From: Bdellovibrionales bacterium
Lineage (GTDB): Bacteria; Bdellovibrionota; UBA1018; CAIMNF01
Direction of reading: 5' to 3'
Assembly (NCBI GenBank): GCA_018266375.1
Contig: JAFEAO010000001.1
Coordinates: 6,800-70,799 of the forward strand
Length of the DNA: 64,000 nt
Part shown: in pieces, positions 2,117-45,896 of the stretch
Layout of the letters: each line of letters begins with the position of its first letter
Numbering within the stretch: the first letter of the stretch is position 1
Made by a program: the position numbers and the translations under genes
The notes under the pieces: model-generated
What the model was told of the DNA's origin: nothing
Database searches by the model: none
What the model saw: the letters and a program-made list of their open reading frames with translations, nothing else

Positions 2117-2119
2117 GGT

Positions 2120-15389: not shown

Positions 15390-15845
15390 TTAGTTCTTGC
15401 CGCAGTTTACGTCAACGAACTTCACCAAGCGCTCAGTCGCTGCTGAAGTGTTGATGGTTTGCAAAGATCCGCCGATGGTCACTTTAAGTGCGATCGTTTT
15501 GCCTTTCATGTGGCTCACGTAAGCGGTCTTACCCCCGCCGACCGGCGGGATTTGGTGGGCAACGACCACTTGGCCTTTGCTCGACTCAACGATCAAACTT
15601 TGCAATACCGTATCGTTTGGAATGCCTTTCCAAACCACTTTTTTGGTCTTGCCGTTCGCGATATCGCCAACGATCGTGCGAATGGACACGGTACCGTCGC
15701 TACGGATCGTACAGTTTTTGCTCGTGGCGTACATTGGATTCACGGTGCCGCTACGGCTTGAAACACTTAAATAATCGACAACTGGTTCAGCGAAAGCGCT
15801 AGCAGAAATAAAAACGAGGGGCAGGACAGCGATAAGGTTTTTCAT
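15390..15845 (-). CDS. Secreted hypothetical protein (151 aa)
   Basis: Signal peptide MKNLIAVLPLVFISASAFA. No family motif recognised. Confidence 0.5.
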   Translation of the reverse strand: MKNLIAVLPLVFISASAFAEPVVDYLSVSSRSGTVNPMYATSKNCTIRSDGTVSIRTIVGDIANGKTKKVVWKGIPNDTVLQSLIVESSKGQVVVAHQIPPVGGGKTAYVSHMKGKTIALKVTIGGSLQTINTSAATERLVKFVDVNCGKN

Positions 15846-15972
15846 TATTCTTTCTCCATGTAATAAAATTCGGGGTCTGGGGACGCATGGATCGTACTCT
15901 AGCCGGAAAAATAACGCAATGCGTTTATTTATGATTTTGCGTTATTTATGCAGCTCAGGTAGAAACCCAGGC

Positions 15973-18675: not shown

Positions 18676-19452
18676 ATGAGAATGCGTATGAAGGTGAAAT
18701 CAAAAACCATTTTCCGCATTCCGAAAATTCATCCCGCACTCGCGGTGTGCTTCGCTCTTTGCAGTTTGAGCGCGCACGCGGATGAATTAAAAATTCTTTC
18801 CAACATTCCGGACTCGAGTGTCTTCGAAGTGAAGAGCGCTCCAGGTTCGAATGCTCCTTCTACAAACGCGGACGAAGAAGAAAAAACATTGCTGGGCAAA
18901 ACACCTCATACCATCAGCGATGCGAGTTCTTCAGACGTGCGCGTGATCAAAGTCGAAAAGCCGGGCTACACACCGGTCTATCTTCCGCTCTTCGGGCATT
19001 TCCGCGGCATAACCGTCATCCGTGTCTCCATGAAAAAAATCACCGACTGGATGCCGGAAGACTCCCAGAAAAAATCACAGGATCTCGCCGAGAGAATCGT
19101 CGACGAAATTTTTGCCGTACAAACCTTGCTCGATGCCAAACAGAGCAAGCAGGCGCTCGGGCTAGCTGAAACCCTTCATGCCAAGTACCCGGGCAGCGTC
19201 GCCGCGAACCTCGTCTACGCAAACGCACTTCTTTTAAACGGTGATTTCGGTCGCGCGCGTGGAATGTACATCGGAGCACTCGATCAAATTCCGGATTCGC
19301 GCAAGCAACTAAAAACTACACTCGCGCGAGTTCTCACCAAGCTGTCGGGACAAAAGCCGGTACCGGATGCGTTGGGTACGGCTGCGACTGCGCGAATGCC
19401 GGCATCCACCGTGCTTAAACCCGGCGTCCGCAAGAAAGGAGCGAAGAAATGA
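18676..19452 (+). CDS. Secreted protein with a PEGA-like beta-sandwich motif and a TPR-like helical region (258 aa)
   Basis: Signal peptide ...ALAVCFALCSLSAHA. VRVIKVEKPGYTPVYLPL resembles the PEGA domain. The C-terminal helical segment is ...HAKYPGSVAANLVYANALLLNGDFGRARGMYIGA.... Its stop overlaps the motA-like start (ATGA). Confidence 0.45.
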   Translation: MRMRMKVKSKTIFRIPKIHPALAVCFALCSLSAHADELKILSNIPDSSVFEVKSAPGSNAPSTNADEEEKTLLGKTPHTISDASSSDVRVIKVEKPGYTPVYLPLFGHFRGITVIRVSMKKITDWMPEDSQKKSQDLAERIVDEIFAVQTLLDAKQSKQALGLAETLHAKYPGSVAANLVYANALLLNGDFGRARGMYIGALDQIPDSRKQLKTTLARVLTKLSGQKPVPDALGTAATARMPASTVLKPGVRKKGAKK

Positions 19453-20180: not shown

Positions 20181-20874
20181 ACGTAAAAAGCGTCATCGCC
20201 AGCACAACGAAGGATCTTGGGCGGTCAGTTATGTCGATATGCTCACTCTCCTTCTTTGTTTTTTCATCATCTTCTTCAATCAAAAGACGATCACCGGCGA
20301 TGACGACAACAGCGTTCTCAAAAAAGTCATGATGTCGATGAACCAGAACAGCCCTGCCCCTGCCGGCAGCGAAAGCGGTGGTGCTAATGGTACTGCCAAT
20401 CAAAAACAAAACGCCGATGTTAAAGAAACCAGCAACATGCTCGAACAGCTCAAAATCGCTTTCGACAAAAAAATCCCGGCTAAGATCAACGCTAACGCAA
20501 AATCGCTTGAAATCGAATACGACGACGTTTCGTTCTTCGATTCGGGTTCGACCAAGATTACTAAAGAAGGCCTCGAGTCCATCGATAAAATGATTCAAGT
20601 GCTCTATCCGTTCCATACGGCGCTTAAGATCACCGTTCAAGGCCATACCGACCCATCCAAAGTCCGCGGTAAACACAATCAGTTCACGGACAACTGGGAG
20701 TTGAGCGTGCTCCGCGCGACGTCGGTGTTGAAAATATTCTTGAAGTCCGGATTTGAACAGCAGTCTCTGTCGGCCGAGGGCTTCGCGGATACGCTCGTCA
20801 GAGAGCCTTCCGCCGAGAATCTCTCCAAGTACCGGAACATTACCCTTAGAATCGAACCGAAGGTGAACCCATGA
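20170..20874 (+). CDS. MotB-family stator protein with C-terminal OmpA-like peptidoglycan-binding domain (234 aa)
   Basis: N-terminal ...GSWAVSYVDMLTLLLCFFIIFF plug/TM region typical of MotB. The C-terminal ...ITVQGHTDPSKV...NWELSVLRATSVLKIF is an OmpA_C-like motif. It overlaps the motA-like 3' end. Confidence 0.7.
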   Translation: MLLERKKRHRQHNEGSWAVSYVDMLTLLLCFFIIFFNQKTITGDDDNSVLKKVMMSMNQNSPAPAGSESGGANGTANQKQNADVKETSNMLEQLKIAFDKKIPAKINANAKSLEIEYDDVSFFDSGSTKITKEGLESIDKMIQVLYPFHTALKITVQGHTDPSKVRGKHNQFTDNWELSVLRATSVLKIFLKSGFEQQSLSAEGFADTLVREPSAENLSKYRNITLRIEPKVNP

Positions 20875-22577
20875 ACTATCGATGCACGACTCTCACGATG
20901 TTGGCTCTACTGATGGCATCCATGATGCCGCAAAAGCAAGCGCAAGCCGCACCGGCCGACGAGCTGCTGGTCAATTCGTACCTTAACGAGCAAGCCGCGC
21001 GCCGGATGGAGCAGATCGTTCCGAAGGGCGAGTACACCATTCACGTCAACGCCATCCTTCGCAAAGCAGACAGCGAAGAGCACATCACTCTCCCTTTTGC
21101 GAGCACTCCGATCACGATGTCCGACGTCGTTGGCAAAGCCGGCGGATTGAATATCGAATCGCTCCTCGGGCGTATTCATCACTACGAAATCGATCTCTCG
21201 CTCACAAAAAACGTTCCGAACTCGGTCAAGGCTATGATGCAAAGTGCGCTTTATCAGCAATTTGCTCTGAAACCCGCGCGCGGAGATAGGCTTAACATAA
21301 TCGACCTTCCGGCGGAGTTCGAGCTACCTTGGATTTACGCTAATCAAGAGGCAAAAACGCGCGACAAAGAAAAGGATAAAGCTGCGTCAAGCGAAACCGA
21401 AGTTACTATGCCTTCCATGCAGTCCATCATCATGGTCGTCGGAGCGGTCGCATTCGCGATTATTCTTCTCGGCATCATCATCAGCTTCGTTTTCAGCCGT
21501 CACTCTAGCCGGATTTCCGAGTCTCTCCGGGAAGCGGCCGATCAAGTTCAAAGCATCGGTCCGACCAATAGCCCGATGGGAGCTTCGGCTCAGACCGCTG
21601 CTCAGGCTGAGAAAATGGAAACCGCGTCTTCGAGCGCGTTCTCGTCTCAAACGAGCCAAGAGTTTTGGGAATCGGTTCCGCCTGCCGCAATCGCGGCTTT
21701 CTGCGTGGACACCGGCGAGTCCAAAATTTACCGCGCGATCCCAGGCCAGCTCCTGAGCGTCGAGCTTCCGAACACTCTCGCCGATCAAGTCAAGACGCTC
21801 CTCCCTCAGGTGTTTTCCGAGCTTCACTTTGACGAGACTCAGGCACTGGTCGACACGGGCACGCTCCGCTCGGTGTTCAAAAAATATCAATCCGACTACA
21901 AAAAACTCGCACAAAACGAACTTGGCGCCGCTCTTCTCAGAATCGGTGTGAAGCAAGTGATGAAAAAGGTGGCGGAGAAAAAAGAAAGCGACACGCTTTT
22001 GATCATGACTCAGTTGACACCGGTTCGTAAAAACGACGTCATCCGTCAGCTTCCGACCGCGATGAAAGTCAAAATCGCCAAACTCACCCTCTCCGTCCGC
22101 CAAAGTCCGGATTGGAGCACACAAGAGAAAGCGATGGTCGAAGAATTTAAAACGATTCGTCCAAAGTTCGATCTCGATGCAGCCGGTGCGATCGAGATGA
22201 TTTCAAAATCACTTCTACAAGCCTCATCGTTCGAAGAAGACGAGCTTCTTTATCAAGAAGCTCAGAATAACCCGAACTTCCCTTACGTGAGTGCTCTCGA
22301 GGCCCTTGATGCGCTGGAATCCATCGAGTGGGAATCGATGAATTTGCAGGAAGTGGCGTTTGCGTTCTTCGGCTACTCGGAGAACGTCGTTGAGAGCGTC
22401 AAAGCAAAGTTCGCGGGTAAAAAACTCGAGTGGTTGCAGAGCTTTCTTAAAAAAGCCGTTCAGCAAAGCTACCTCTTCGATCAAGCCGAGATTCAAAATG
22501 CCCAGCACAACGTAAAAGAACGAGTCAAAGCCAAGAGAAACGTCGGAGCATCGGAGTCTTCCGCGAATGCATCGTAA
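20871..22577 (+). CDS. Bitopic membrane protein (568 aa): signal peptide, ~150-aa periplasmic domain, one TM, ~360-aa cytoplasmic helical domain
   Basis: MNYRCTTLTMLALLMASMMPQKQAQA signal, then TM IIMVVGAVAFAIILLGIIISFVF. The cytoplasmic part is helical with weak FliG-C/MgtE-N-like character (...LTPVRKNDVIRQLPTAMKVKIAKL...). Its ATG overlaps the motB-like stop (ATGA). Confidence 0.45.
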   Translation: MNYRCTTLTMLALLMASMMPQKQAQAAPADELLVNSYLNEQAARRMEQIVPKGEYTIHVNAILRKADSEEHITLPFASTPITMSDVVGKAGGLNIESLLGRIHHYEIDLSLTKNVPNSVKAMMQSALYQQFALKPARGDRLNIIDLPAEFELPWIYANQEAKTRDKEKDKAASSETEVTMPSMQSIIMVVGAVAFAIILLGIIISFVFSRHSSRISESLREAADQVQSIGPTNSPMGASAQTAAQAEKMETASSSAFSSQTSQEFWESVPPAAIAAFCVDTGESKIYRAIPGQLLSVELPNTLADQVKTLLPQVFSELHFDETQALVDTGTLRSVFKKYQSDYKKLAQNELGAALLRIGVKQVMKKVAEKKESDTLLIMTQLTPVRKNDVIRQLPTAMKVKIAKLTLSVRQSPDWSTQEKAMVEEFKTIRPKFDLDAAGAIEMISKSLLQASSFEEDELLYQEAQNNPNFPYVSALEALDALESIEWESMNLQEVAFAFFGYSENVVESVKAKFAGKKLEWLQSFLKKAVQQSYLFDQAEIQNAQHNVKERVKAKRNVGASESSANAS

Positions 22578-23133
22578 GATCTGGGGGGTTGCTGCATTAT
22601 GCAGTTTCCTTCTCGGGGTTTCGACATGGAGTGCCGAGCCGGAGTATCGTAGTTCGGTCGAAATTTTTGTCGGCGGATACTCGCTTCAGTCTTCGAGCGG
22701 CGCCGCTACCGCGATCGGATCGCTACTCGTTAACTACGGGTACAATATCGACAAGCATTTCAGAGCCGGGTTTGCCTATCAAAACATTCTTTCCAGCTCA
22801 ACCGGCCTGGGCTCGTCGGTCTCAGGTTTCGATCTATCCGGGCAATATTGCTTTTTTTCTTGCGTGACCTTGCGGACCGACGCAGCCGCTGTCGCCATCG
22901 TGCAAGAGCACGCTAAATTTGGTTTGGCAGCCGGATTCGGCCTCTCTCAACGCAGCTTTCAACTCGCGACTCAATCTGTCGGTTTTGCCGGGCCAATGTT
23001 TAAAGCGACAGGAAATTACTTTTGGAAAGATCAGATCAAGCTCCTCCTCGGCGTTCAATATTCCAGTCTGGTAAATGGATCAAACTCGCTTAAGTTTATA
23101 ACGTACTCCGTAGGTTTGGGAGTCGATTGGTAG
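22567..23133 (+). CDS. Small outer-membrane beta-barrel protein (188 aa)
   Basis: Signal peptide MHRKIWGVAALCSFLLGVSTWSA, amphipathic beta-strand pattern, and a C-terminal ...GLGVDW aromatic terminus. Confidence 0.5.
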   Translation: MHRKIWGVAALCSFLLGVSTWSAEPEYRSSVEIFVGGYSLQSSSGAATAIGSLLVNYGYNIDKHFRAGFAYQNILSSSTGLGSSVSGFDLSGQYCFFSCVTLRTDAAAVAIVQEHAKFGLAAGFGLSQRSFQLATQSVGFAGPMFKATGNYFWKDQIKLLLGVQYSSLVNGSNSLKFITYSVGLGVDW

Positions 23134-23324
23134 GCCAGAATTAATTCTGCCTCAAAATCCCATAAATGACTTTGATTGCAATCTTTAAATTCAGGTCAAC
23201 ACTGACACACCTGACATTGTTAAATTTCTATTAGATAATAAAAAGAATTATCAGGGGGAATGTCGGTGCCGTGCGGAGCAACCTTTTTTAATCCTTTCCG
23301 CTAATTATGCCGATAAAGAATTGA

Positions 23325-26300
23325 ATGAGAGTACTCTCAGCCATTGCCATTATCATTCTCTCCGGCTGCTCCGGTGTCTCTAACCAAGACATGGGCAATC
23401 TCATCGGCGTTTCGGTCACCGGTAACAATCAACCTACTTCCACCCCGACCGGCATCACTCTCAACATCGTGGGCGGTAATAATCAAACCAGCGCACCAGG
23501 TACGACCTTCACCGATCCGCTTCGCGTGCAACTTCTCGATGACGGCGTTCCGCAGGCAAACAAAAACGTAAACTTCACGGTGACCAACGGCATGGGTATT
23601 TCGTTCAGCGCCTCTGGCGGCGTGACCGACGCCTCCGGCATGGTGCAAACCTATGTCACCGCTTCGAACGCGGGCAACATTACCATTCGTGCGTCTTACC
23701 TCTCTTACGGCGCGGACTTCTCGCTTTCGGTCACCAACCAAAGCAACGCCACTCTTACAAAGATTTCGGGCGACTCACAAACCGCAACGGTCGGCACGGT
23801 CCTCTCACAACCGTTGATCGTTGAAACGCGTGATTCTGGAACCGGCTCACCGCTCTCGAATATTCTCGTGCGTTTTACCGTTTCAGGCGGGAACGGACGC
23901 TTGAACTCCGCTTCAAGCAGTATGACCGTGGCAAGTGATGGTACAGGCCGTGCGTCGGTAAACTTCGAAGTGGGTACGCTTGCCGGTGCAAACACCGTGG
24001 TTGCATCCATCGTGAGCGTCCCTGCTCAAAACACTACTTTTAGCTCGACCGGTACCGTTCCTACCAACAGTGTCATCAACTTCGCACAAAGTACGGTGAC
24101 CGCCGCAACAGGCACGCTTGTCGCCGACGGATCTCAAACGACGACTCTCACCCTTACGACTCGCGATGTATACGGCAACACGATTCCAAGCGGCGGCAAA
24201 ACAGTTGCATTTACCGTGAATACCGGAACACTCCTTGGCTCAGTGAACGATCTAGGCAACGGGACCTACACCCAAATCGTGCGCGCGCCGGTCGCAATGC
24301 CGCCCAATGCGATTAGCGCAAGCGGTACGGTAAACGGAAGCGCTCTCACCAGTACTGCAGCAAACATTTCTCTCCTCTCCGGTTCGATCAGCTTAACGAA
24401 CTCAACCATCACCAGCGCTGCAAGCTCGATGGTGGCCGATGGCATCGCTACCGTACTTGTCACGGTGACGCTTAAAGACTCTCTCGGAAACCAACTCAGC
24501 ACCGGCGGACAAAACGTGGTTCTCACCTCGAGCATGGGCACCTTGATCGGCTCGGTGACCGACGTCGGAAACGGAACCTACACTCAGACATTAAAATCGT
24601 CGAGCTCGACCGGCACTGCAATCGTGTCCGCCACTGTCGGTGGATCGCCGCTCAGCACCTCCAAAAGTATTGCTTTCGTGGCCGGACCGCCGGACGCCAC
24701 CAAAGCGGTGATCGTCGCGAACCCGACTTCATTGCCGCCAAACGGTTCTTCAGCAAGCGTGATCACCGTTCAACTTCGTGACGCCAACAACAATCCATGC
24801 ACCAATGCCACTGGACATACCGTCACCTTGACTAAATCCACGGGTGGAACTTGGATGGGCTCAGGTACCAACGTTGTCGCAGCAACGGACAACGCCGACG
24901 GAACATATTCGGCGATCCTCATCGCCGCAGCAACTCTTGGCAATAGCACGATCACCGGGACCGACAACGCCGCCGTTCTCTCTAAAACGGCAACCGTCTA
25001 CTTTACTAACGGTGCTTACGGTCCGGATGTCAGCAATTCAACCATTCAGGTCATCGGCTCTAACCCGACTGCTGCGGATGGCGTGAGTACTGTTGTCGTT
25101 AAAGTCAGCTTGCGTGATTCTTTCAACAGTCCAATTTTGACGGGCGGGTCGGCCGTCACGATTACTACAAATTCGGGAACGCTTCTGGGTTCGGTCACCG
25201 ACAACGGCGACGGCACTTATCAGCAAACGCTCCGCGCGCCAAGCTCGGCTGCAATCGCTACTGTCGGCGCGAGCGTCGACGGCAACACATTAGTTCGCAC
25301 GGCGAACGTCAGCTTCTATGGTTCGATCAGTTTAACGACTTCAACGATCACCGCCGCTCCGGGATCGATCGTCGCGAACGGAACTTCAACGACCGTACTC
25401 TATCTCAATGCCAAGGATTCAAACGGCACCGAGATTCCGGTTGGAGGTGAAGCCACGATCGTCTTCGGCACTACCGGAGGGACCTTGGTCGGATCCGTTA
25501 CGGATAACGGCAACGGAACTTACTCGCAGGTTTTACGCTCAGCCGCTTCCGCGCTCACCGCAAGTGTTGGCGCAACTCGTTCAGGAGTTCCATTTTCCAA
25601 TACCGTGAACGTCGAATTCTACACTGCCAACAACCGGGCTGGTTTGACGATCGACTGCTCGAACATCGCGACTTATCAAAACACCACGCTACTCGTCGAC
25701 AACGGTACCCTCACGATGAACTCGACCGGTTCGGCCGGCACTTGCCCCTCGTCATTTACTTTTAACGGCATCATTCTCCAAAACAACGCCATCCTCACCC
25801 ACACCGCTGCTACGACGACTCAGGAGTATGGACTCGAGTTGACCGCAAATTACATTACGATCGACGCGACCAGCACGATCGATGTTTCGGCAAAAGGTTA
25901 TCCATTTTCGCCAACTAACAACATGATCCGTACGCAAGGCAACACCGATGTGAGTTCGGGTGCAAGTATGCAGGTCGGCGGCTCGTATGGCGGACAAGGT
26001 GCTTCGAGCAGCGGCGCCGGAACCAACGTCAACCTCACCTACGGTAGCATCTTCGAGCCTTTCGATCTCGGATCGAGCGGAGGACGCTACTCCACTCATC
26101 AATCCGGTTCGGGCGGCGGCAAGGTAAAACTCACCGTTACCGGTCCTTCGGGTATTCTGAACTCCGGATCCATCAAAGCCGAAGGCGGCAAAGTCCCGAA
26201 CACCCAGCTCAGCGGAGCCGGAAGCGGCGGCAGCATCTGGATCAATACCACCAAACTTGCCGGCACCGGCACGATCAACGCCAACGGAGCTGGAACGAAC

Positions 26301-29300
26301 TTCGACGGAACCCTTCGCTACGCGGGCAGTGGCGGGCGGATCGCGATCTATTACGGCGATTTCAGCGATTTAACAAATAACTTCTCGTATCCGACGAACG
26401 CGCTCGCAAATATCACTGCACGAGGCGGGATCGGTGTCGGCAGCTGCGCCGCCGGCGCAGGCACCGTCTATCTGAAGTCGACCGCGCAGACCTACGGTGA
26501 TTTGATCATCGACAACAAAGGTGTCGCGACTTGCACTTCAACGAATGGAACCATCATTAATCAACCTGCAATTCCTACGAACGAAGCCATTACCGCTACT
26601 ACCCTCACCCGCACAAACTCCTTCGGTGACAGCTACAATACCGCCGCATCTCCATATAAAGGCTGGTACGTCGATCCGAATACCACTCAAAACGCGACTC
26701 CGAAAAAATCGGACAATAGTCTTTTCAAAATTACGGGCGCAACCGCGAGCGTCCTCACCACAACCGGCGGCAATATGACTTCGGTCGCGACTGTAGCTGA
26801 CCCGGCAGAGTTAGTATTGGTTTTTGACAATTTCGAACAAGGTGACAAAACTCAAATTTCTGTGGGAAACTTGCGTATCCTCTCCTACGGCGGAGACTTG
26901 CGTTCAACTGACAATATTACCGTTACGCTCACAGATGCCCTTCCACCTAAAGGCATTGAATTTGTCGGAGCCCAAAACATTACTTTCAACCTAAATTCGT
27001 GGACTTTGCCATCATTTTTAAATGAAGACTTTGGAACCGCGAGTTTGACAGTTTCAGGAGGAAACTTTAACTTCGGAACAATTAACGCTAGAAACTTCAT
27101 TGCATCCGCTGCAAATTTGTTCGGCACTAAATTGCGAATAGCGGGAAACGTTAGCTTGAGTTCTGTAAACGCAACTTTTAACCAGCTTAAAGGAAACTTT
27201 GCAATTCAAGCCGACGGGGCGATTGAATTTTTAAATGCTACTACAATCACACAAACAGCTACCACATCTACGGTTGAACATTCCCTGGAAATCTTCGGCT
27301 CAAGTATAAATTTAGCCACTGGCTGCACATTATCTGCAAGAGGTAAAGGCTACCCCTCAGTAGTCGCTACTAAAAATCGTGTTTTTGGAAATGTGGATGC
27401 GACCGTGTCCTGGACAGGAGCTGCAGCCACGGGCGCCGGAGGCACCCATGGAGGTCGAGGAGGCGCTCAAGGAACCACATATTATCCAGCGGAAGTTTGG
27501 GGAAATTATCGTGATCCTTACACATCAGGAGGGAGCGGCGGGACCTCAAATGGATCTTCGGGACCCGGTGGCGGCATTATTCGAATCAGCACATCAGGTG
27601 CGGGGCCAATTACGATTTCCGGAACAGTAGACGCCCGAGCGACAGACGTAAATGCCGACAATGGGGCTGGAGGAAGCATTTATTTGAATGGGGGGCTCGT
27701 AACCGGCTCAGGAACACTCGACGCACGGGGGGGGACGAATTCCGGTGGAATGAACTACATGGGAGGAGGAGGAGGACGAATTGCAGTATATTACACTTCA
27801 TTAGGTGGAAATTTCACTTACCCTACAAACGCGATCGCAAATATTAAAGCCTGGGGTGGCACCTCAAATGCGAATACTTCTTACTGGGCCGCTGCAGGAA
27901 CAATATTTATGAAGGCTTCATCTGAGAACTATGGACGGCTGATTGTGAATAATAATAATAGCCCATTAGTTGATTCGAGCGGGCGCCGAACTGTCATCAA
28001 TTTTCCGGCCATAGTATCCAGTTCGGGATTGGTTTACGATTCCGGCACAGACACAACAACATTGACGTCCGTCGGTACCTTCAATGAACGTTATGGCCCT
28101 TCAAATGCGTATATTGGCATGTATCTTAATCCGAATACTGCCCAAAATGCCACAACAGCAATTCAGGATGATGCTTTATTTCCAATTATCGGCCAAACTG
28201 CGAACACGTTGATCGCACAAGGAAACGCAACAAGCGTGGGAACTTCTGGAAACATTTTTCAGCTTAATTCAAAACTGGATGAACTAAGAGTAATTGGAAA
28301 AGGAATTTTAGAAATCAATAACGGTGTGATCCTAACTAATAACCTTGTCGTGATCAATGGGCAAATCGGCGGCACAGGATCAGTCGAAGTCGCTCAACCT
28401 TCTTTGTCGGATTTAACCCTCACTCCAAATGGCGGGACAGTTCGGCTAAACGGCCTCAGCAATATTGGCATACTGAATTTGCTACCCGGTACTTACATTG
28501 TTCCATCGGGTGGGACGATTTCCACCAACGGCAATTTAACTATGTCTGGCGCAACGATCTCGGGATCAAATATCAATTATAATGTGATAGGCGACTTCAC
28601 AGCCACTTCATCGACTCTCGGGACAATTGGAACCATCACGACAACGGGAGATATGAATCTTACTTCGACAACGGGTACGGCCAATGGAAACATCTCGATC
28701 GGGGGGGCGTCGGTCCTAAGCGGAGCAACTCTGGCCCAGACTACGGGTAATTTCAGTGTCGGGACCAATCTCACGGTAGGACCAGTCAGTACACTCACCC
28801 AATCACAATACAACGCGACACTCACTGTGCCCGGCAATTTTTTCATCACCACAAACTCATCTGTTACAGCAAATTATCCTACTATCGCCGGAAACCTGAG
28901 TGTAGACCAAGTTTCAACTCTCTCTAGCGGCAATGCCGTACTGACTCCATTTACGACCTACAACACTGTTTCAAATTTAAACGTGACCGGAGATACCACC
29001 GTTACAAATGGTTCTACAATTTATTCAAACGTTACAAATTCGACGACTGAGTACTACCTCTATTTAACGACTACAAACTTAAATATTGATAATACCTCGT
29101 CCATCAGCGCAGACAACCGCGGCTATCGAAACGTCGTCTACAGAACATTCAGAAGTCTCGGAAACACCGACTACCTCCCAATGAACAGCGCAGGAACAGG
29201 CTACCTAACTACTTCTGAAACGGCGTCCGCAGGAGCTTATGGCGGTGCTGGTGGCGGCGCCGGCGGGCCTCATCGATCCAATCGCCCTTATGGTTCGTTT

Positions 29301-30272
29301 TATAATCCGATTTATTTAGGATCGAGCGGATCATGTTGGGGCGCAAGTGCGGGTTGTCCCGATGCGGCAGGCGGTGCGGTCCGGTTAAAGGTTCCGGGCA
29401 CAGCAACCATTAACGGAATCATCACCGCAGGCGGATCACAACAAAGCCAATCGGCCGGATCAGGAGGCAGCATCTACCTTGATGTCGGGACACTCACGGG
29501 GACGGGTACCGGGATCATTCGAGCAAACGGACCGCAGACTGCGACCGTGTATGGTGGAGGGGGAGGCGGAAGAATCGCTATTTACTACAATACATTTGGC
29601 GGACAATATGCCACTCCATCGACTTTAATCAGTAGTCTTCAGGCCTACGGTGGCAACCCCAGTGGAACAGCTGACGCCCGTGGAAGCGCTGGAACGATTT
29701 ACCTGAAAGCAAGTTCGCAAACATACGGTGATCTGATCATTAACAATAACGGAGCCGACAGCAATTTGACGACCTATTTCTTTCCGTTGGGATATGCCAC
29801 GCCGACATCGTCAGTTGTGACTTCGACTACTCTCACATCGCCCCTTGGTTTTTACAACTTGTACGGAGTTCTTGATTTTTTCAAAGGTTACTTCTTGAAT
29901 CCAAACGTTGCGCAAAACGCGACTGCCAAACTATCTGACGATACCGTGTTTTCAGTGACTGGCAATGATAACGCCACTTTAACTACCGCAACGACTGGCA
30001 TGGACAGCATCGCGAGCGCCGGTAACACCTTTGCTCTGCAGTTGATTTTTGATAACTTGGAAATCCGAAATCGTGGCAAATTGAATGCCACAGCTGTCAA
30101 CGTCCGTGTTTTGGACGGTGACCTTGGTTCAAACAACACTACCACCTTCTCGCAGGATGGGGGTCTATGGGGCCGCACTGTTGATCTCGGCCCGGGTGTG
30201 ACCTGGAGCAATACAGCCAACGCATCCGGCACCATCACCACAAAGTGCGCCGCGAACTTTCCTTGTCCTTAA
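23325..30272 (+). CDS. Giant surface lipoprotein (2315 aa): N-terminal Big-like (invasin/intimin-type Ig) domain array, then three diverged copies of a ~480-600-aa Gly-rich beta-helix-like module
   Basis: Lipobox ILSGCSG. At least five Ig-like repeats share (T/S)GTL(L/I/V)GSVTD(N/V/L)GNGTY(T/S/Q)Q(T/I/V)L(R/K). A three-fold module carries the motifs GSGG...RIA(I/V)YY...FxYPTNAxANIxAxGG, AGAGT(V/I)YLK(S/A)(T/S)xQTYGDLII(D/N)N, Y(V/L/F)(D/N)PNT(T/A)QNAT and D(N/D)xxF..(T/I)G. Confidence 0.8.
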   Translation: MRVLSAIAIIILSGCSGVSNQDMGNLIGVSVTGNNQPTSTPTGITLNIVGGNNQTSAPGTTFTDPLRVQLLDDGVPQANKNVNFTVTNGMGISFSASGGVTDASGMVQTYVTASNAGNITIRASYLSYGADFSLSVTNQSNATLTKISGDSQTATVGTVLSQPLIVETRDSGTGSPLSNILVRFTVSGGNGRLNSASSSMTVASDGTGRASVNFEVGTLAGANTVVASIVSVPAQNTTFSSTGTVPTNSVINFAQSTVTAATGTLVADGSQTTTLTLTTRDVYGNTIPSGGKTVAFTVNTGTLLGSVNDLGNGTYTQIVRAPVAMPPNAISASGTVNGSALTSTAANISLLSGSISLTNSTITSAASSMVADGIATVLVTVTLKDSLGNQLSTGGQNVVLTSSMGTLIGSVTDVGNGTYTQTLKSSSSTGTAIVSATVGGSPLSTSKSIAFVAGPPDATKAVIVANPTSLPPNGSSASVITVQLRDANNNPCTNATGHTVTLTKSTGGTWMGSGTNVVAATDNADGTYSAILIAAATLGNSTITGTDNAAVLSKTATVYFTNGAYGPDVSNSTIQVIGSNPTAADGVSTVVVKVSLRDSFNSPILTGGSAVTITTNSGTLLGSVTDNGDGTYQQTLRAPSSAAIATVGASVDGNTLVRTANVSFYGSISLTTSTITAAPGSIVANGTSTTVLYLNAKDSNGTEIPVGGEATIVFGTTGGTLVGSVTDNGNGTYSQVLRSAASALTASVGATRSGVPFSNTVNVEFYTANNRAGLTIDCSNIATYQNTTLLVDNGTLTMNSTGSAGTCPSSFTFNGIILQNNAILTHTAATTTQEYGLELTANYITIDATSTIDVSAKGYPFSPTNNMIRTQGNTDVSSGASMQVGGSYGGQGASSSGAGTNVNLTYGSIFEPFDLGSSGGRYSTHQSGSGGGKVKLTVTGPSGILNSGSIKAEGGKVPNTQLSGAGSGGSIWINTTKLAGTGTINANGAGTNFDGTLRYAGSGGRIAIYYGDFSDLTNNFSYPTNALANITARGGIGVGSCAAGAGTVYLKSTAQTYGDLIIDNKGVATCTSTNGTIINQPAIPTNEAITATTLTRTNSFGDSYNTAASPYKGWYVDPNTTQNATPKKSDNSLFKITGATASVLTTTGGNMTSVATVADPAELVLVFDNFEQGDKTQISVGNLRILSYGGDLRSTDNITVTLTDALPPKGIEFVGAQNITFNLNSWTLPSFLNEDFGTASLTVSGGNFNFGTINARNFIASAANLFGTKLRIAGNVSLSSVNATFNQLKGNFAIQADGAIEFLNATTITQTATTSTVEHSLEIFGSSINLATGCTLSARGKGYPSVVATKNRVFGNVDATVSWTGAAATGAGGTHGGRGGAQGTTYYPAEVWGNYRDPYTSGGSGGTSNGSSGPGGGIIRISTSGAGPITISGTVDARATDVNADNGAGGSIYLNGGLVTGSGTLDARGGTNSGGMNYMGGGGGRIAVYYTSLGGNFTYPTNAIANIKAWGGTSNANTSYWAAAGTIFMKASSENYGRLIVNNNNSPLVDSSGRRTVINFPAIVSSSGLVYDSGTDTTTLTSVGTFNERYGPSNAYIGMYLNPNTAQNATTAIQDDALFPIIGQTANTLIAQGNATSVGTSGNIFQLNSKLDELRVIGKGILEINNGVILTNNLVVINGQIGGTGSVEVAQPSLSDLTLTPNGGTVRLNGLSNIGILNLLPGTYIVPSGGTISTNGNLTMSGATISGSNINYNVIGDFTATSSTLGTIGTITTTGDMNLTSTTGTANGNISIGGASVLSGATLAQTTGNFSVGTNLTVGPVSTLTQSQYNATLTVPGNFFITTNSSVTANYPTIAGNLSVDQVSTLSSGNAVLTPFTTYNTVSNLNVTGDTTVTNGSTIYSNVTNSTTEYYLYLTTTNLNIDNTSSISADNRGYRNVVYRTFRSLGNTDYLPMNSAGTGYLTTSETASAGAYGGAGGGAGGPHRSNRPYGSFYNPIYLGSSGSCWGASAGCPDAAGGAVRLKVPGTATINGIITAGGSQQSQSAGSGGSIYLDVGTLTGTGTGIIRANGPQTATVYGGGGGGRIAIYYNTFGGQYATPSTLISSLQAYGGNPSGTADARGSAGTIYLKASSQTYGDLIINNNGADSNLTTYFFPLGYATPTSSVVTSTTLTSPLGFYNLYGVLDFFKGYFLNPNVAQNATAKLSDDTVFSVTGNDNATLTTATTGMDSIASAGNTFALQLIFDNLEIRNRGKLNATAVNVRVLDGDLGSNNTTTFSQDGGLWGRTVDLGPGVTWSNTANASGTITTKCAANFPCP

Positions 30273-32069: not shown

Positions 32070-33428
32070 ATGGGCTCTTGGGCTTTTAAATTCTTTATTT
32101 TCCTTGTGTTCTCCTCATGCAACGCTTTTGCGACGGTCGGAACTTTGGTCGATTACAAATCGATCGACAGTCGGTCTATCGGAAGCATCGGACTCGATAC
32201 TTCGAGCTTTATGTATAAGGCCAAAGGCCGCGATACTTCAGCCACAACTTTCGAAGCCTCTCTCGGAGGACAATTCGACACCGCGATTTTACACGGCGTC
32301 GGCTCCGCCCAGTTTTTTACATTCGTAAATAATTCACCCCAACTCGGATTCGAAGCACCCGAGCTCTACCTCTCGACTCAAAAGAATCTTCTCGATGCCC
32401 ACACCATCACCGTCGGCCGCCGGAAGTTCGAATGGTCGAAGGTCGACAAAGAATGGAACATGATGAGCCTCTGGTCGCCGCGTTTTACCTGGGATCAAAT
32501 CTACCCTGAGACCATCGGGATGACCGGGCTTTTTTACACGTACGAAACGCCCCGCTTTAAATTTATGGCGTTCGGTTCGCCGATCGCGATTCCGGAGCGC
32601 GGTACCCCGATCTCCGAAGAAAACGGCAACATCGTTTCTCCCAATCCATTTTGGAATCCGCTTCCAAGCCAACTCAGCGTCCAAGGCGCACCGACGCAAA
32701 TCAACTACACCCTCCTCATGCCGGCGCTTCAGGATATTCTTTTGCGTCCGAACTTTGCCGTTCGCGGATACTACGATCTCGGCGAAGGCTTTTGGTTGAG
32801 CGCGAACGCAGGGGTGCTTCCAGTCAACATGACTCAGCTCGCGGCCGAGCCGTATTATTACCATGGCAACATCAACGTGAACATCCGCCCTCAGTTCCCG
32901 ATGCGTAACCTCTACACCGCCGAGTTTGGCTACAATGACTCCAGTAAACTTTGGAACGCGTGGATGTCCGTCAGTTACGAAAAACCCTTCAACTTCGAAA
33001 ACAACCGCAACTGGTTGAATCCGGTGATCACTCCGACTTCGGTCGTGAGCTTGGGCACCGACTTTCAAGTCACCAATAACTTCCGTTTCGACGGTGCGAT
33101 CTTGTTCGTGCGCGAGCAGGAGTTTGTCCGCGACTCAAGCCTTCCGAACATCAACGTCGATCTTCCGACCCGCTACCCGCTTAAGCAGGGCATCAAAGCG
33201 GCAGGCACCTGGTCGTTCAGCGACACAAACGAAGCCACCGTGGCTTGGATTCAAGATCTCGTGCAATCATCAAACTTCGTCTCTTTCGATTTACAGCACA
33301 AAATTTTCAGCGCGAATATGTCCATCGGCGGGGGTGCTGATCTCATGCTTGCGAATACAAACAAGGGTTGGGTCGGGCAATATTACGGGGATGACCGACT
33401 TCGAGGTTGGCTAAAGTATGCGTTCTAA
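32070..33428 (+). CDS. Outer-membrane beta-barrel protein, hypothetical (452 aa)
   Basis: Signal peptide MGSWAFKFFIFLVFSSCNAFA, aromatic-rich alternating pattern, and a C-terminal ...GWLKYAF terminal Phe. Confidence 0.5.
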   Translation: MGSWAFKFFIFLVFSSCNAFATVGTLVDYKSIDSRSIGSIGLDTSSFMYKAKGRDTSATTFEASLGGQFDTAILHGVGSAQFFTFVNNSPQLGFEAPELYLSTQKNLLDAHTITVGRRKFEWSKVDKEWNMMSLWSPRFTWDQIYPETIGMTGLFYTYETPRFKFMAFGSPIAIPERGTPISEENGNIVSPNPFWNPLPSQLSVQGAPTQINYTLLMPALQDILLRPNFAVRGYYDLGEGFWLSANAGVLPVNMTQLAAEPYYYHGNINVNIRPQFPMRNLYTAEFGYNDSSKLWNAWMSVSYEKPFNFENNRNWLNPVITPTSVVSLGTDFQVTNNFRFDGAILFVREQEFVRDSSLPNINVDLPTRYPLKQGIKAAGTWSFSDTNEATVAWIQDLVQSSNFVSFDLQHKIFSANMSIGGGADLMLANTNKGWVGQYYGDDRLRGWLKYAF

Positions 33429-35736
33429 AATTCTTTCCTACATTTCGGTCTTGAGCCTCTGCCTTAGCGGCTGCGGTCTTTTAGGCAATAAAGACGCTCC
33501 CGAGGCAAAGTCAAACGTGAGCGCGACCGGATGCTTGAACGAATCCAAAGACTTGATCGGTCGTTACGTCGGGGGCAGAATGACCCAGACCGAATGGAAA
33601 TCCGCTTTCGACTGTATTAACAAATCCCTCGATTTCTTCACCGACTTCGTCCGCGGATCGGGCGTCGACTCTTACACGCAAGGCGACATGTACGAACTCG
33701 TAACCAAGTTTTTGATCACGAACGGCAAAGTCCGTCCCGATCTCATGCGCGGGGCCTTTAACCTGAAGATGGCTCTCTTCGGCGGTGACGCAAAAGAATT
33801 CAAAAAAGACGAAGTGGAAGTCCTGAAGCGCTCTCTCACTCGGCTTCATGATATTACCAGTGACCTCATTCCTTATCTGCAACTCCGCCAGAATCCGAAT
33901 GCGGATCTGAACCAAATCCTTGAAATGGTTCCGGCCTTCAAACGCGCCGGCGACCAACTCGCGGACTTCATGAACACGCTGCCGACCAACATCATGAGTT
34001 CGGACGCGATGGATTTGCTCTTTAATGAACTCACCTACACCCTGGGCCTCTCTCAAGTCGATAACTTGGGCGAAAAGGTGTCGGTCGCGAAATGGCTTTT
34101 GTTCAACACCCGCCGAGACGCGTTCGAGCCCTATGACTGGGCACAGATCTTCCGCGATGCCTTCGGCTTAGGCGGTATCTTGCTCGCTCTTAAAACCGCG
34201 GGTGCTCCTGCCGAAGTTTGCGCTGACCCCAACAACTCCGAGCCTAAATGCAAGGTGTTCCAGCGTTTAGGCGAAGACTACCGTTACCGCGAATTCTTCT
34301 GGGAACTTCTCCAGCAAGCGAAACCTTACTTCACCGATGCCCTGAAACGCCATAACGGCTCGGTTCCGCTTCCCATCTTCGATCACATCGTCGACAACCT
34401 TCCCAAAGGCATGCTCGATAGCGTGCCAAAACCAGTACTGAAGAACGTGATCCGTCCGATGGTGATGCGCCTCATCGGTTCTGAGAGCGAAATCGGTTTT
34501 GACAACCGTACCATCGACAACCTCTACGGCCTCGTTGAGAACGTCGTGAAGGATTTAGGCCTCCTCGATCGATTCTACGAGAGAACCGGGCTGAATCCGG
34601 ATAGCGTCACGGTGGCAAACTTCAATACTACCATTAAACAATACGAGGGAAGCCTCTCCGGCGACGATCTCCGCCGATTCCAAACGATTGAAACTGCGTT
34701 GACCGAGCAACCTGCCCTCATGCAGCCGGACGGATTTATCAAATACGTTCCAAATCTCGGTTACTCGCTCACTCAGCACCGCGTGGTGCTCGCGTTCCGC
34801 AACTTGGTGAACTTCATCCACGTCGGTTACGGAAGCGGTTCCGATCACTTTCTCGAAAACGATTTTACCCAGTTCTTCGCCGACTACACCGAGCTTTGCT
34901 ACGCATTTAAGTTGATCGACATCACCGTCGCGGATTTCGGCAAAAAACGTTTCTCGGATCTCGATCTCTTTACCGCGAAAAGTAACGGCGACGCAAAAGC
35001 CCAGATCCCAGAAATAGTGACCTACGCGCTCACTCTCGTGTCATCAGGCAAAATGACTACGAAAATGAAAAAGGAAATCGACGCCGCTTGTCCGCTCAGT
35101 AACGGCATGGACAACATGGACACGTATTGGGTGGACGGTGATTGTTTCCGCCGTCAGTACAATGAGCGCCTCGAGTATTGGCTCGATAACTTCCCGCGCT
35201 TTAAAGCCTATTGGGTCAACCTCGGTCCGACCGACAAAGCCAAGGCCATGAAGTGGCTCGAGCACGGTGCCCGTCGTAACGGCTACACCGGCGACCTGAA
35301 CCAGCCGCAAATGGACTGGTTCGGCGCCTTCGACTTCCAAGCGATGGCGACAGTGATCCATTATACCGAAGCCCTGTTTACTCGCTTCGACGGCAATATC
35401 AACGAGACTCTGAGCAAGTCCGAGGTCAACAACGCGTTTGACCTCTTTAAAAACCTGATTCAGAGAAAAGCAAAAGACGTCGCCAACACCGACATCTCAA
35501 GTAACTACATCTTGAAGGCGGTGTTTTCGTACATCGTGCGATACCGCTCGATGCCGGTCCTGAGCTTAAGTCAGTTGGGTAACACCGCGCAATTCGTGTG
35601 GTGGCTCGCCGTTTACTCGCTTCCGACGACAAACTATTCGGCCGACCGTATCGGCGTTTTCAACATCGTCTGTCAACTTGCATTACCGGATTCAGATGAC
35701 CAGAAAAAACGCACAAAAGACATCTGCGCACCATAA
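33418..35736 (+). CDS. Large lipoprotein, hypothetical (772 aa), with one canonical EF-hand-like Ca-binding loop
   Basis: Lipobox LSGCGLL. The DGNINETLSKSE segment is a 12-residue EF-hand loop (DxNxNxxxxxxE). No other family recognised. It overlaps the preceding OMP gene by 11 nt. Confidence 0.5.
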   Translation: MRSKILSYISVLSLCLSGCGLLGNKDAPEAKSNVSATGCLNESKDLIGRYVGGRMTQTEWKSAFDCINKSLDFFTDFVRGSGVDSYTQGDMYELVTKFLITNGKVRPDLMRGAFNLKMALFGGDAKEFKKDEVEVLKRSLTRLHDITSDLIPYLQLRQNPNADLNQILEMVPAFKRAGDQLADFMNTLPTNIMSSDAMDLLFNELTYTLGLSQVDNLGEKVSVAKWLLFNTRRDAFEPYDWAQIFRDAFGLGGILLALKTAGAPAEVCADPNNSEPKCKVFQRLGEDYRYREFFWELLQQAKPYFTDALKRHNGSVPLPIFDHIVDNLPKGMLDSVPKPVLKNVIRPMVMRLIGSESEIGFDNRTIDNLYGLVENVVKDLGLLDRFYERTGLNPDSVTVANFNTTIKQYEGSLSGDDLRRFQTIETALTEQPALMQPDGFIKYVPNLGYSLTQHRVVLAFRNLVNFIHVGYGSGSDHFLENDFTQFFADYTELCYAFKLIDITVADFGKKRFSDLDLFTAKSNGDAKAQIPEIVTYALTLVSSGKMTTKMKKEIDAACPLSNGMDNMDTYWVDGDCFRRQYNERLEYWLDNFPRFKAYWVNLGPTDKAKAMKWLEHGARRNGYTGDLNQPQMDWFGAFDFQAMATVIHYTEALFTRFDGNINETLSKSEVNNAFDLFKNLIQRKAKDVANTDISSNYILKAVFSYIVRYRSMPVLSLSQLGNTAQFVWWLAVYSLPTTNYSADRIGVFNIVCQLALPDSDDQKKRTKDICAP

Positions 35737-41220: not shown

Positions 41221-41234
41221 AAGGAGAAGTTGCG

Positions 41235-45891: not shown

Positions 45892-45896
45892 TCATC

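Follow-up and report, generated by a model that had tools for sequence, protein, structure and literature searches.

A giant Bdellovibrionales lipoprotein with an Ig-like array and three Gly-rich modules, encoded beside a MotAB-type gene cluster: a candidate outer-membrane adhesin

The giant gene described here may encode a lipid-anchored, rod-like adhesin of the outer membrane that works with a MotAB-type, proton-driven envelope complex, a reading to which we assign a probability of about 0.45. The gene lies in a window of 64,000 nucleotides from a Bdellovibrionales bacterium (contig JAFEAO010000001.1, positions 6,800 to 70,799), and all coordinates refer to this window (Table 1). Three lines of evidence bear on this reading: the architecture of the protein, the properties of its repeated Gly-rich module, and the conserved linkage of its gene to a set of five others.

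Table 1. Features of the giant gene and the adjoining cluster.
Feature	Position	Strand	Basis
Cluster gene 1: 258-aa TPR-containing protein, signal peptide	18676..19452	+	Pfam TPR_19 1.3e-7; homologues in 7 loci
Cluster gene 2: divergent MotA/PomA-type stator subunit, 243 aa	19449..20180	+	PF01618 8.3e-18, MotA_N
Cluster gene 3: MotB-type subunit, 229 aa from ATG at 20185	20185..20874	+	PF13677 3.5e-10, PF00691 1.9e-13
Cluster gene 4: 568-aa bitopic protein, signal peptide	20871..22577	+	sequence, domain search
Cluster gene 5: 188-aa OMP-like protein, signal peptide, C-terminal …GLGVDW	22567..23133	+	OMP_b-brl E=0.011, full model length
Sigma-70-like promoter match, CTGACA-17-GATAAT, 10/12	23211..23239	+	in the 191-nt gap 5′ of the giant gene
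Giant gene, 2,315-aa lipoprotein	23325..30272	+	ORF, signal peptide; identical to "hypothetical protein JST80_00155" (Bdellovibrionales MAG)
Predicted type-II signal peptide, lipobox L-S-G-C (Cys15), Ser at +2	23325..23369	+	sequence; lipobox kept in 12/15 orthologues
Seven Ig-like domains, aa ~38-769	23438..25631	+	Pfam, repeat HMM, self-BLAST
Gly-rich module copy 1, aa 786-1238 (part A ~786-1060, part B ~1060-1238)	25680..27038	+	self-BLAST, family HMM, AF2
Gly-rich module copy 2, aa 1272-1710	27138..28454	+	self-BLAST, family HMM
Spacer of ~150 aa, aa 1711-1861, T/N/G/S-rich, short beta-strand-like repeats	28455..28907	+	read from sequence
Gly-rich module copy 3, aa 1862-2314	28908..30266	+	self-BLAST, family HMM
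Conserved C-terminal Cys loop, …TTKC-AANFP-CP, Cys2308 and Cys2314	30246..30269	+	~12/15 orthologues

Architecture of the Giant Protein

The open reading frame is uninterrupted, and its product begins with MRVLSAIAIIILSG, followed directly by CSG. This N-terminus is a canonical type-II signal peptide with a lipobox (LSG before the Cys), combining the positive n-region, the hydrophobic h-region and the [LVI][ASTVI][GAS]C motif that characterize lipoproteins; the three same-architecture orthologues in which it is missing have truncated or miscalled starts. The sequence suggests that the protein would be lipidated at Cys15 and, given Ser at +2, sorted to the outer membrane by the E. coli Lol rule. 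The giant protein with a lipobox noticed in an earlier, sequence-only reading of this DNA is thus borne out. Promoter-like matches around the gene are no more numerous than expected by chance, and the sigma-70-like site in the upstream gap is only suggestive.

The N-terminal third of the protein is an array of Ig-like domains, in which Pfam detects Invasin_D3 in five stretches (E=2.6e-72) and Big_1 in seven (E=1e-16), the only other match at E≤1 being a faint one to GH2_C5. Two diverged Big_1-type units (aa ~38-250) open the array and are followed by five clear Invasin_D3-type units, placed by a repeat HMM at aa 251-354, 355-455, 457-564, 567-667 and 668-769. Where five or more Ig-like repeats of ~100 aa and of Big_1/invasin type had been noticed, domain annotation and the repeat HMM find seven. 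Tandem Big_1/Invasin_D3 domains also build the extended stalk of invasin and intimin, which carries a distal binding part. In those two proteins, however, a beta-barrel in the outer membrane provides the N-terminal anchor and a C-type-lectin-like domain closes the chain, where the giant protein has a lipobox and three Gly-rich modules of an unannotated family; Pfam at E≤1 finds in it neither an inverse-autotransporter barrel nor a lectin-like C-terminal domain.

The three Gly-rich modules, each of ~440 aa, are recovered by off-diagonal self-BLASTP with 30-41% identity to one another and E values down to 1e-30. A family HMM delimits them at the bounds given in Table 1, with E values of 3e-156, 6e-113 and 2e-128 for copies 1 to 3, and the copy starts are spaced by 486 and 590 aa, the spacer of ~150 aa being found after copy 2 only. 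The three diverged copies of a ~480-600-aa unit that had been described are therefore real, and the motifs quoted for them all lie at the positions given: R[IV]A[IV]YY at aa 1005, 1485 and 2083; F[ST]YPTN at aa 1020 and 1497; QTYGDL at aa 1055 and 2132, with ENYGRL at aa 1534; and QNAT at aa 1122, 1607 and 2197. The N-glycosylation-like character read into this region did not hold. Composition-preserving shuffles give 50.7 +/- 5.9 NxS/T sequons, and the protein has 61 (z=1.7); sequons of the bacterial D/E-x-N-x-S/T type number three, with 2.4 expected. The Asn of QNAT is not conserved among distant members of the module family. Because the sequon count lies within the expectation from composition, this character reflects an N/T/S-rich composition only, and the glycosylation reading was rejected.

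The Gly-Rich Module

The AF2 model of module copy 1 (aa 781-1262) is all-beta (pLDDT 88.9, pTM 0.92) and consists of coils of ~35 residues bounded by Gly, of the form GGxGGSIxI…LxGxGxIxAnGG. This predicted periodicity is compatible with a beta-solenoid. Among 1,392 copies from 253 proteins, conservation is concentrated in Gly runs ~35 aa apart and in Ala, Ile and Leu, as well as at R1005 (95%), P912 (94%), T1047 (90%) and Y906 (87%), and no conserved set of Asp, Glu, His, Cys or Lys is found in this sample. The module therefore seems to serve structure or binding and not catalysis. Its conservation pattern is consistent with a structural or adhesive role, and so are the extracellular domains to which the module is fused elsewhere, i.e., Big_5, Big_7, Laminin_G_3, TSP3, cadherin-like, PKD, G8 and CarboxypepD_reg. 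To this extent the proposal of a surface adhesin stands, while exposure at the cell surface is a step that we infer, as are the binding of a ligand and the coupling of the lipoprotein to a motor.

Many beta-helix proteins act on glycans, and each module could in principle be a beta-helix glycanase or lyase, directed at prey envelopes or extracellular polysaccharide. Foldseek searches with the module model do return faint matches that include a GH110 galactosidase and phage tailspikes, and one A1 member matches Rhamnogal_lyase at E=0.075. Nevertheless, the faint Foldseek matches have TM scores of at most 0.24 and E values of at least 0.05, no Pfam or NCBIfam enzyme model matches the window protein at E≤1, and structural repeats, unlike catalytic domains, typically occur in tandem arrays such as the module forms, with up to 12 copies in one protein. 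An enzymatic reading is disfavoured because no residues of catalytic type are conserved across the module copies, and we consider it very improbable.

The module has no match among Pfam, NCBIfam or PDB sequences, profile searches included, and 31 module sequences submitted to Pfam gave none either. Foldseek likewise found no PDB neighbour for the model, with E>2 against tailspikes and beta-helices, and neither Beta_helix nor Pectate_lyase from Pfam matches the giant protein or its modules. The beta-helix adhesin that had been suggested is supported as regards the Gly-rich all-beta coils of the AF2 model; a classical parallel helix of the pectate-lyase type would be a more tentative reading of them. 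The Gly_rich Pfam model (ALK/LTK-type PGII domain) does not match the module, and in the Foldseek list the phage PGII sandwich of gp38 appears only at E=2.7 (TM 0.08-0.12) and ALK is absent. FHA/TpsA, the passengers of autotransporters and the chlamydial Pmp proteins resemble the module arrays in their Gly-bounded beta coils stacked in long rods, their tandem repeats and the very large size of the surface proteins concerned. They differ from the module in that the latter has coils of ~35 residues and no match in Pfam, and family models detect no TPS domain, C-terminal translocator barrel or Pmp repeats (GGA[ILV]/FxxN) in the giant protein or its modules. A match of the modules to a well-known, characterised adhesin family, which would have spoken against the sequence-only reading, was not found: they correspond to no Pfam, NCBIfam or PDB entry. 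The giant proteins of Omnitrophota contain "novel beta-helix tubules" built of antiparallel helices with alpha helices on the outside (10.1101/2023.11.21.568195); an identity of these tubules with the module was considered and rejected on account of that arrangement.

Judged by sequence comparison, the triplicated module is a very widespread and undescribed domain family, absent from Pfam, NCBIfam and PDB. The family comprises 13,419 representative clusters at 50% identity and is distributed over Bdellovibrionota, many CPR bacteria, DPANN archaea, Myxococcota, Verrucomicrobiota and others. When genomes were scanned for it, single-sequence patterns matched nothing and a family pattern was needed. 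A phage tail-fibre origin was rejected, since a search of 2.9 million viral contigs confirmed only one relative and the matches in BFVD are weak (TM≤0.3). At ~270-440 aa, the module is one of the most frequent units from which the giant proteins of uncultured bacteria and archaea are built, and a definition of the family would provide annotation for thousands of giant proteins that are now "hypothetical". Many of its carriers belong to host-dependent CPR and DPANN lineages or are predators, in which cell-cell attachment is the central unknown.

In seven proteins of other phyla (P0057, P0066, P0067, P0072, P0101, P0102 and P0114), the module lies N-terminal to RHS/YD shells (PF05593/PF25023). 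This arrangement recalls the stalk of a polymorphic toxin and gives some substance to the earlier suggestion that the giant protein might be a scaffold for contact-dependent delivery of an effector. Against it, the giant protein and its orthologues end directly after the third module in the conserved Cys loop, Pfam finds no RHS/YD repeats or C-terminal toxin domain in the giant protein, and no RHS, toxin or immunity gene was found. The giant protein itself lends the suggestion no support, and we regard a toxin-delivery function as extremely unlikely.

The Adjacent Five-Gene Cluster

The sequence-only reading missed what is the most informative feature of the region, i.e., a conserved MotA/MotB-type cluster adjoining the giant gene. 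Its five genes overlap one another, and there is no terminator-like site between them and the giant gene. The first encodes the TPR-containing protein, the N-terminal part of which looks PEGA-like by eye. The divergent MotA-type subunit is followed by a MotB-type subunit that keeps the plug, the transmembrane Asp (…SYVDMLTLL…) and the OmpA-like peptidoglycan-binding domain. The 568-aa protein is predicted to have ~170 aa in the periplasm, one transmembrane helix (~186-208) and a mostly helical cytoplasmic part of ~350 aa. Domain searches place it in no family. Homologue searches with it returned only itself and one fragment, a profile search against PDB gave nothing, and a near-single-sequence structure model reached a pLDDT of 40; a likeness to FliG/MgtE_N or a ring-building motif would be speculation, its sole support being one sub-threshold MgtE_N match (E=1.6e-4) in the counterpart at locus L009. 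The OMP-like protein has homologues in seven other loci, and an aromatic last residue is found in six of the eight family members.

The best NCBIfam matches of the two stator-type subunits are flagellar (PomA/MotA and MotB/MotD, respectively) and score well above TolQ/ExbB, and a MotB plug combined with a peptidoglycan-binding domain is typical of flagellar stators. The flagellum of Bdellovibrio is sheathed, and the genus has several motAB pairs. The cluster could accordingly be a flagellum-associated envelope structure, in which MotAB is one of the flagellar stators, the TPR-like, OMP-like and 568-aa proteins form a scaffold or disk in the manner of MotX/MotY, FlgO/FlgP or PflAB, and the giant lipoprotein is a periplasmic or sheath element. 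Yet the scores fall far under every flagellar equivalog cut-off: the MotA-type subunit reaches ~90-91 bits against cut-offs of 340-341 for PomA/MotA, and the MotB-type subunit 100 against 283 bits at best. No flagellar structural gene was found where the window is annotated, nor at the orthologue loci, and a rod of 2,315 aa made up of Ig domains and solenoid-like modules has the architecture of an adhesin and, to our knowledge, no flagellar precedent. A flagellar function is improbable on these grounds.

Conservation of the linkage was surveyed in 11 contexts, i.e., the window and 10 orthologue contigs, a set being counted as linked at a distance of no more than 8 kb from the giant gene. The set of TPR-like protein, divergent MotA, MotB (plug and OmpA domain), ~550-aa bitopic membrane protein and ~190-aa OMP-like protein is linked in eight of them (the window, L003, L083, L001, L009, L082, L084 and L085). 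At least five arrangements are found: upstream co-directional, downstream co-directional, upstream divergent, downstream convergent, and convergent with two inserted genes. Beyond the pair formed by cluster and giant gene, the flanking genes differ between loci. MotA, MotB, the TPR-like and the OMP-like proteins each form a connected homology network across the linked loci, with MotA identities of 25-67%, and the linked giant-gene orthologues diverge down to 35% identity. When the cluster proteins were used in tblastn at 76 loci of other phyla that carry module genes, no MotA neighbour was detected, which indicates that the linkage is specific to the Bdellovibrionales-type lipoprotein with an Ig array plus three modules and does not belong to the module family as such.

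These data have to be weighed against a simpler explanation, in which the giant protein is a stand-alone passive adhesin or surface coat, an outer-membrane lipoprotein displaying its Ig stalk and modules, and the MotAB cluster is an unrelated neighbour kept by residual synteny. The architecture alone is enough for an adhesin, the giant gene has a promoter-like site of its own and an upstream gap of 191 nt, the orthologues at L002 and L004 have no five-gene cluster within 8 kb, and the module loci of other phyla lack a MotA neighbour. By contrast, the adjacency has outlasted at least five rearrangements and a complete change of the outer flanks, at orthologue and MotA identities as low as those given above. 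Inertia alone is a difficult explanation for an adjacency that persists through such rearrangements and sequence divergence, and a purely passive adhesin seems to us conceivable but doubtful.

A Tentative Model and Its Precedents

Altogether, the reading of a motor-linked adhesin leads to a model in which the giant protein would be lipidated at Cys15 and then sorted to the outer membrane, as Ser at +2 would direct under the E. coli Lol rule. The seven Ig-like domains would serve as an extended stalk, and the three Gly-rich modules as a rigid, solenoid-type distal part that touches the substratum or another cell. On the basis of gene neighbourhood alone, the protein would work with the adjacent five-gene set, so that the proton-motive force may deploy, retain, unmask or move the adhesin. 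5:2 motors are known to drive many outer-membrane processes (PMC12204202). If the link between adhesin and stator is true, it would add a new proton-motor-coupled process of the outer membrane to the flagellum, Tol, TonB, Agl/Glt, GldLM, SiiAB and Zorya, and would provide a testable handle on the attachment or gliding of Bdellovibrio-like predators. A wider proposal joins two claims, first that the giant lipoprotein is the outer-membrane output of an undescribed Bdellovibrionales trans-envelope machine of MotAB type (5:2 stator), composed of a TPR-like protein, MotA, MotB, a ~550-aa bitopic inner-membrane protein and a small outer-membrane barrel, that draws on the proton-motive force and moves, unmasks or tensions the adhesin for gliding or prey attachment, and second that the module founds a new and very large family that accounts for a large part of the giant surface proteins in CPR bacteria, DPANN archaea and predatory bacteria. 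Taken together, they are put forward as a conjecture that is less likely than not.

Among known systems, SiiE with SiiAB and CglB with Glt and AglRQS are the closest analogies. In Salmonella SPI-4, the genes of SiiE, a giant adhesin of Ig repeats, and of a proton channel that is MotA/MotB-like and binds peptidoglycan are likewise linked (10.1101/641415; PMC6272769); SiiAB, the MotAB-like channel, is needed for SiiE function (10.1101/641415). However, SiiE is type-I-secreted, non-lipidated and built of 53 BIg domains, and SiiAB belongs to a T1SS operon, whereas the giant protein has a lipobox, three further conserved partner proteins and no T1SS genes nearby. No T1SS genes were found in the window flanks or the orthologue loci, and the giant protein has no RTX match. 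Adhesins of the SiiE/LapA type are marked by the lack of an N-terminal signal peptide, by a C-terminal T1SS signal or RTX repeats and by adjacent ABC/MFP/OMF genes; the giant protein, with its lipobox signal peptide, is not of this type. In Flavobacterium gliding, SprB is also a giant repetitive surface adhesin moved by proton-driven motors, namely GldLM (PMC8986121), but it travels through the T9SS, carries a C-terminal sorting domain and is not a lipoprotein; Gld/T9SS domains were not detected in the giant protein.

In Myxococcus gliding, small Glt beta-barrels hold the outer-membrane lipoprotein CglB, an adhesin that is coupled to AglRQS (PMC9946355). The likeness extends to a TPR protein, a pmf-driven motor and a predatory bacterium (PMC9946355). 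CglB differs in being a 42-kDa VWA protein with a TolQ/TolR-like motor, whereas the protein described here has 2,315 aa without VWA and is accompanied by a MotA/MotB-like motor with an OmpA domain. As a separate observation, an AglRQS-like cluster, distinct from the five-gene set, lies ~9 kb downstream of the giant gene.

Architecture of the giant lipoprotein

The giant protein is encoded by an uninterrupted ORF, and an identical entry, 'hypothetical protein JST80_00155', is public for a Bdellovibrionales MAG. The ~51% GC content of the window and the housekeeping genes in it (pgi, mutL, miaA, ilvE, an rluA-like gene and mnmC) are in keeping with a chromosomal locus. The sequence-only reading had proposed a lipobox followed by an Ig-like array, and both are borne out: the N-terminus (MRVLSAIAIIILSG followed by CSG) has all the marks of a classical lipobox-containing type-II signal peptide, and Pfam assigns five stretches to Invasin_D3 (E=2.6e-72) and seven to Big_1. 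Residues 781-2315 have no match in Pfam, NCBIfam or PDB sequences and contain three copies of one module. The three diverged copies already described are recovered by off-diagonal BLASTP (up to E=1e-30, 30-41% identity) and delimited by the family HMM, and every motif quoted from them is found where it had been placed. The protein does not qualify as NxT-rich and glycosylation-like, with 61 sequons vs 50.7 +/- 5.9 expected by composition (z=1.7). The full architecture (lipobox, Ig array and three modules, once four) is common to ~15 proteins, whose module regions are 33-55% identical; the lipobox is recognisable in 12 of the 15, and about as many (~12) end in a '…NASGTxTTxC-x5-CP' loop.

Features of the giant protein, its neighbourhood and two related loci (nt, window or locus; aa, giant protein)
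Feature	Position	Size	Evidence or character
Giant gene	23325-30272 (+)	2,315 aa	
Diverged Ig-like units, two	aa ~38-250		
Clear Ig-like units, five	aa 251-354, 355-455, 457-564, 567-667, 668-769		repeat HMM
Module copies 1, 2, 3	aa 786-1238, 1272-1710, 1862-2314		family HMM
Part A coil starts	aa 966/1001, 1447/1481, 2045/2079		sequence
Spacer	after module copy 2	~150 aa	T/N/G-rich
TPR protein	five-gene set	258 aa	
MotA	five-gene set		PF01618, MotA_N
MotB	five-gene set		plug + OmpA
568-aa protein	five-gene set	568 aa	signal peptide, one TM helix, helical cytoplasmic half
OMP-like protein	five-gene set	188 aa	OMP_b-brl E=0.011 over full model length; C-terminus …GVDW
Second proton-channel cluster	39603-47690 (+)		
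TolQ/ExbB-like	second cluster	218 aa	PF01618 2.8e-25
ExbD/TolR-like, two	second cluster	147 + 173 aa	small bitopic proteins, by eye
Helical-repeat protein	second cluster	1,072 aa	signal peptide, no Pfam match
399-aa protein	second cluster	399 aa	hypothetical
TPR protein	second cluster	597 aa	
Overlapping pair	32070-35736 (+)		no Pfam match for either
One of pair	overlapping pair	452 aa	signal peptide, OMP-type C-terminus …WLKYAF
Other of pair	overlapping pair	772 aa	lipoprotein, lipobox LSGC
FHA/GGDEF-like gene	14359-15309 (+)	316 aa	FHA-like N-terminal, GGDEF-type C-terminal part (…RYGGEEF…), by eye
L001 further giant gene	23169-23524 and beyond	2,481 aa	Big_3/Laminin_G_3
L084 Lcl_C genes, two	15606-17432		PF07603

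A Gly-rich module with a predicted all-beta fold

Mapping onto 120 database hits split the module into two parts. Part A, the first ~270 positions, is Gly-rich, ends at 'AGTxYLK' and is the universal unit, found elsewhere in tandem arrays of 4-8 copies; Part B, containing 'QTYGDLIIDN … NPNxxQNxT … FDNLE', accompanies only about one third of the copies. AlphaFold2 modelling of residues 781-1262, which followed the alignment of 31 full-module sequences (A1), gave a mean pLDDT of 88.9 and a pTM of 0.92. The model is essentially all-beta, and its long Gly-rich stretches receive no DSSP secondary-structure assignment, yet are predicted with high confidence. In its second half, Part A repeats coils of ~35 residues that follow the pattern 'G-[SG]-G-G-x-[IV]-x-[IL] … L-x-G-x-G-x-I-x-A-x-G-G', and the main strands of the model are spaced 35-42 residues, as expected from a beta-solenoid with Gly-rich arcs; from sequence and model, we infer solenoid geometry for the module. 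Foldseek matches of the model (m45f27ce43abe) in BFVD are weak, high-probability ones (E 1.7e-5 to 9e-4, TM<=0.3) to Gly-rich giant-virus proteins, namely a prasinovirus 'PA14 domain' protein and Pandoravirus and Orpheovirus 'collagen-like' proteins, which may be remote relatives or compositional.

A glycan-degrading beta-helix enzyme is an alternative, improbable reading. Across 1,392 aligned copies, conservation falls on Gly runs, Ala/Ile/Leu and a single Arg (95%), Pro (94%), Thr (90%) and Tyr (87%), with no conserved set of Asp/Glu/His/Cys/Lys, a pattern that marks a structural repeat and not an enzyme.

Spread of the module family

When 1.84 billion representative proteins were searched exhaustively with the profile, 13,419 proteins matched at E<=1e-3; stricter thresholds left 9,533 (E<=1e-10) and 5,379 (E<=1e-30). 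Lengths of 3,000-7,000 aa are frequent among the matches, and as many as 12 copies occur in one protein. A pattern scan for [GS]GGRIA[IV]YY plus a second motif, with one genome per species, confirmed at least 353 relatives. In 2.9 million viral contigs, only one was found. The best 76 loci belong to Bdellovibrionota/Oligoflexia, ~27 Patescibacteria/CPR lineages (Saccharibacteria, Dojkabacteria, Moranbacteria, Woesebacteria and others), two DPANN archaea, Myxococcota, Verrucomicrobiota, Acidobacteriota, Planctomycetota, Chloroflexota, and Gamma- and Alphaproteobacteria. Nearly all of these are MAGs, with Pseudomarimonas arenosa as a cultured exception. In one Oligoflexia MAG locus of 18.4 kb (L010), no complete ORF of >=180 aa is present, which points to a single module-bearing ORF of >6,000 aa that outruns it.

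Domains fused to the module elsewhere are of the extracellular or adhesion type (Big_5, Big_7, Laminin_G_3, TSP3, cadherin-like, PKD, TIG, G8, CarboxypepD_reg), and several family members carry C-terminal RHS/YD shells. In proteins P0057, P0066, P0067, P0072, P0101, P0102 and P0114, from other lineages, tandem modules are N-terminal to RHS/YD-shell regions (PF05593, PF25023), and the module is there the stalk of polymorphic-toxin-like proteins. That the giant protein is likewise a toxin-delivery stalk is improbable; toxin and enzyme signatures are absent from it.

Conserved linkage to a MotAB-type gene cluster

The five genes 5' of the giant gene are mutually overlapping, which suggests translational coupling. 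MotB keeps its TM Asp (…SYVDMLTLL…). The nearest NCBIfam models for the MotA/MotB pair are flagellar PomA/MotA and MotB/MotD, with TolQ/ExbB far off, and a less probable reading makes the giant protein part of a flagellum-associated structure; both members of the pair score well under all the equivalog cut-offs (91 against 341 bits for MotA, 100 against 283 bits for MotB). For the 568-aa protein, a profile search of PDB found zero relatives, homologue searches gave none usable and the structure model was unusable (pLDDT 40); the sole domain match obtained is a sub-threshold MgtE_N match in its L009 counterpart.

In 7 of the 10 orthologue contigs, the five-gene set is found no more than 8 kb from the giant gene; with the window included, this makes 8 of 11 contexts. 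It is upstream and co-directional in L003 and L083, as in the window, upstream with MotA on the opposite strand in L009, upstream and divergent in L082, downstream and co-directional in L001, and downstream and convergent in L085 and L084, in the latter with two Lcl_C genes between. Flanks beyond the set are unlike in every locus. Of the three remaining contexts, L002 and L004 have no such set within 8 kb, and the L005 contig ends upstream of the giant gene. In all-against-all phmmer, MotA, MotB, the TPR-like and the OMP-like proteins each form one connected homology network across loci, with MotA identity of only 25-67%; for the ~550-aa protein, homology is demonstrable in the window, L003 and L082 alone, its counterparts elsewhere being positional and architectural. 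Because the adjacency outlasts at least five rearrangements at such divergence, there is good comparative evidence, short of proof, for a functional link, which argues against a stand-alone passive adhesin, a reading that L002 and L004 favour. In 76 loci, module-bearing genes of other phyla have zero MotA neighbours; the linkage is hence specific to the Bdellovibrionales lipoprotein and not to the whole module family.

Two loci hold further giant or adhesin-type genes. In L001, a further giant gene lies just 3' of the MotAB-type cluster. The Lcl_C domain of the L084 genes, beside a four-module orthologue, is the Legionella collagen-like adhesin C-terminal domain, another adhesin-type addition to the neighbourhood.

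Proposed working and relation to known adhesins

The giant protein would receive its lipid and be targeted to the outer membrane, with the Ig domains as a stalk and the three modules, joined by solenoid-like linkers, as a rigid distal part binding a surface or another cell. Neighbourhood and precedent suggest that this adhesin may cooperate with a MotAB-type proton-driven envelope complex. The giant Ig adhesin SiiE needs SiiAB, a MotAB-like, peptidoglycan-binding proton channel, for function (10.1101/641415), the lipoprotein adhesin CglB relies on small Glt beta-barrels, a TPR protein and the AglRQS motor to hold and unmask it (PMC9946355), and many outer-membrane processes are powered by 5:2 motors (PMC12204202). 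In its proposed working, the giant protein most resembles SiiE/SiiAB or CglB/Glt-Agl, although membership in neither can be claimed. Its Ig array puts it near invasin/intimin, but it lacks the beta-barrel anchor and the lectin-like tip that define them. As a T1SS, T5SS, T9SS or RHS protein, it fails on every criterion tested.

We rate it among the giant Ig-stalk adhesins, a known kind. Two of its elements are new: the distal module, undescribed though very abundant, whose confidently predicted fold gave no solved neighbour, and the conserved association with a cluster of divergent MotAB type.

Other genes in the window

The second proton-channel cluster has a one-TolQ-plus-two-TolR layout, reminiscent of the AglRQS clusters that encode gliding motors in Myxococcus and Bdellovibrio. 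The overlapping pair could, from its sequence features, be another outer-membrane barrel and lipoprotein module. The FHA/GGDEF-like gene, which precedes the MotAB-type cluster by ~3.4 kb, could provide a c-di-GMP input.
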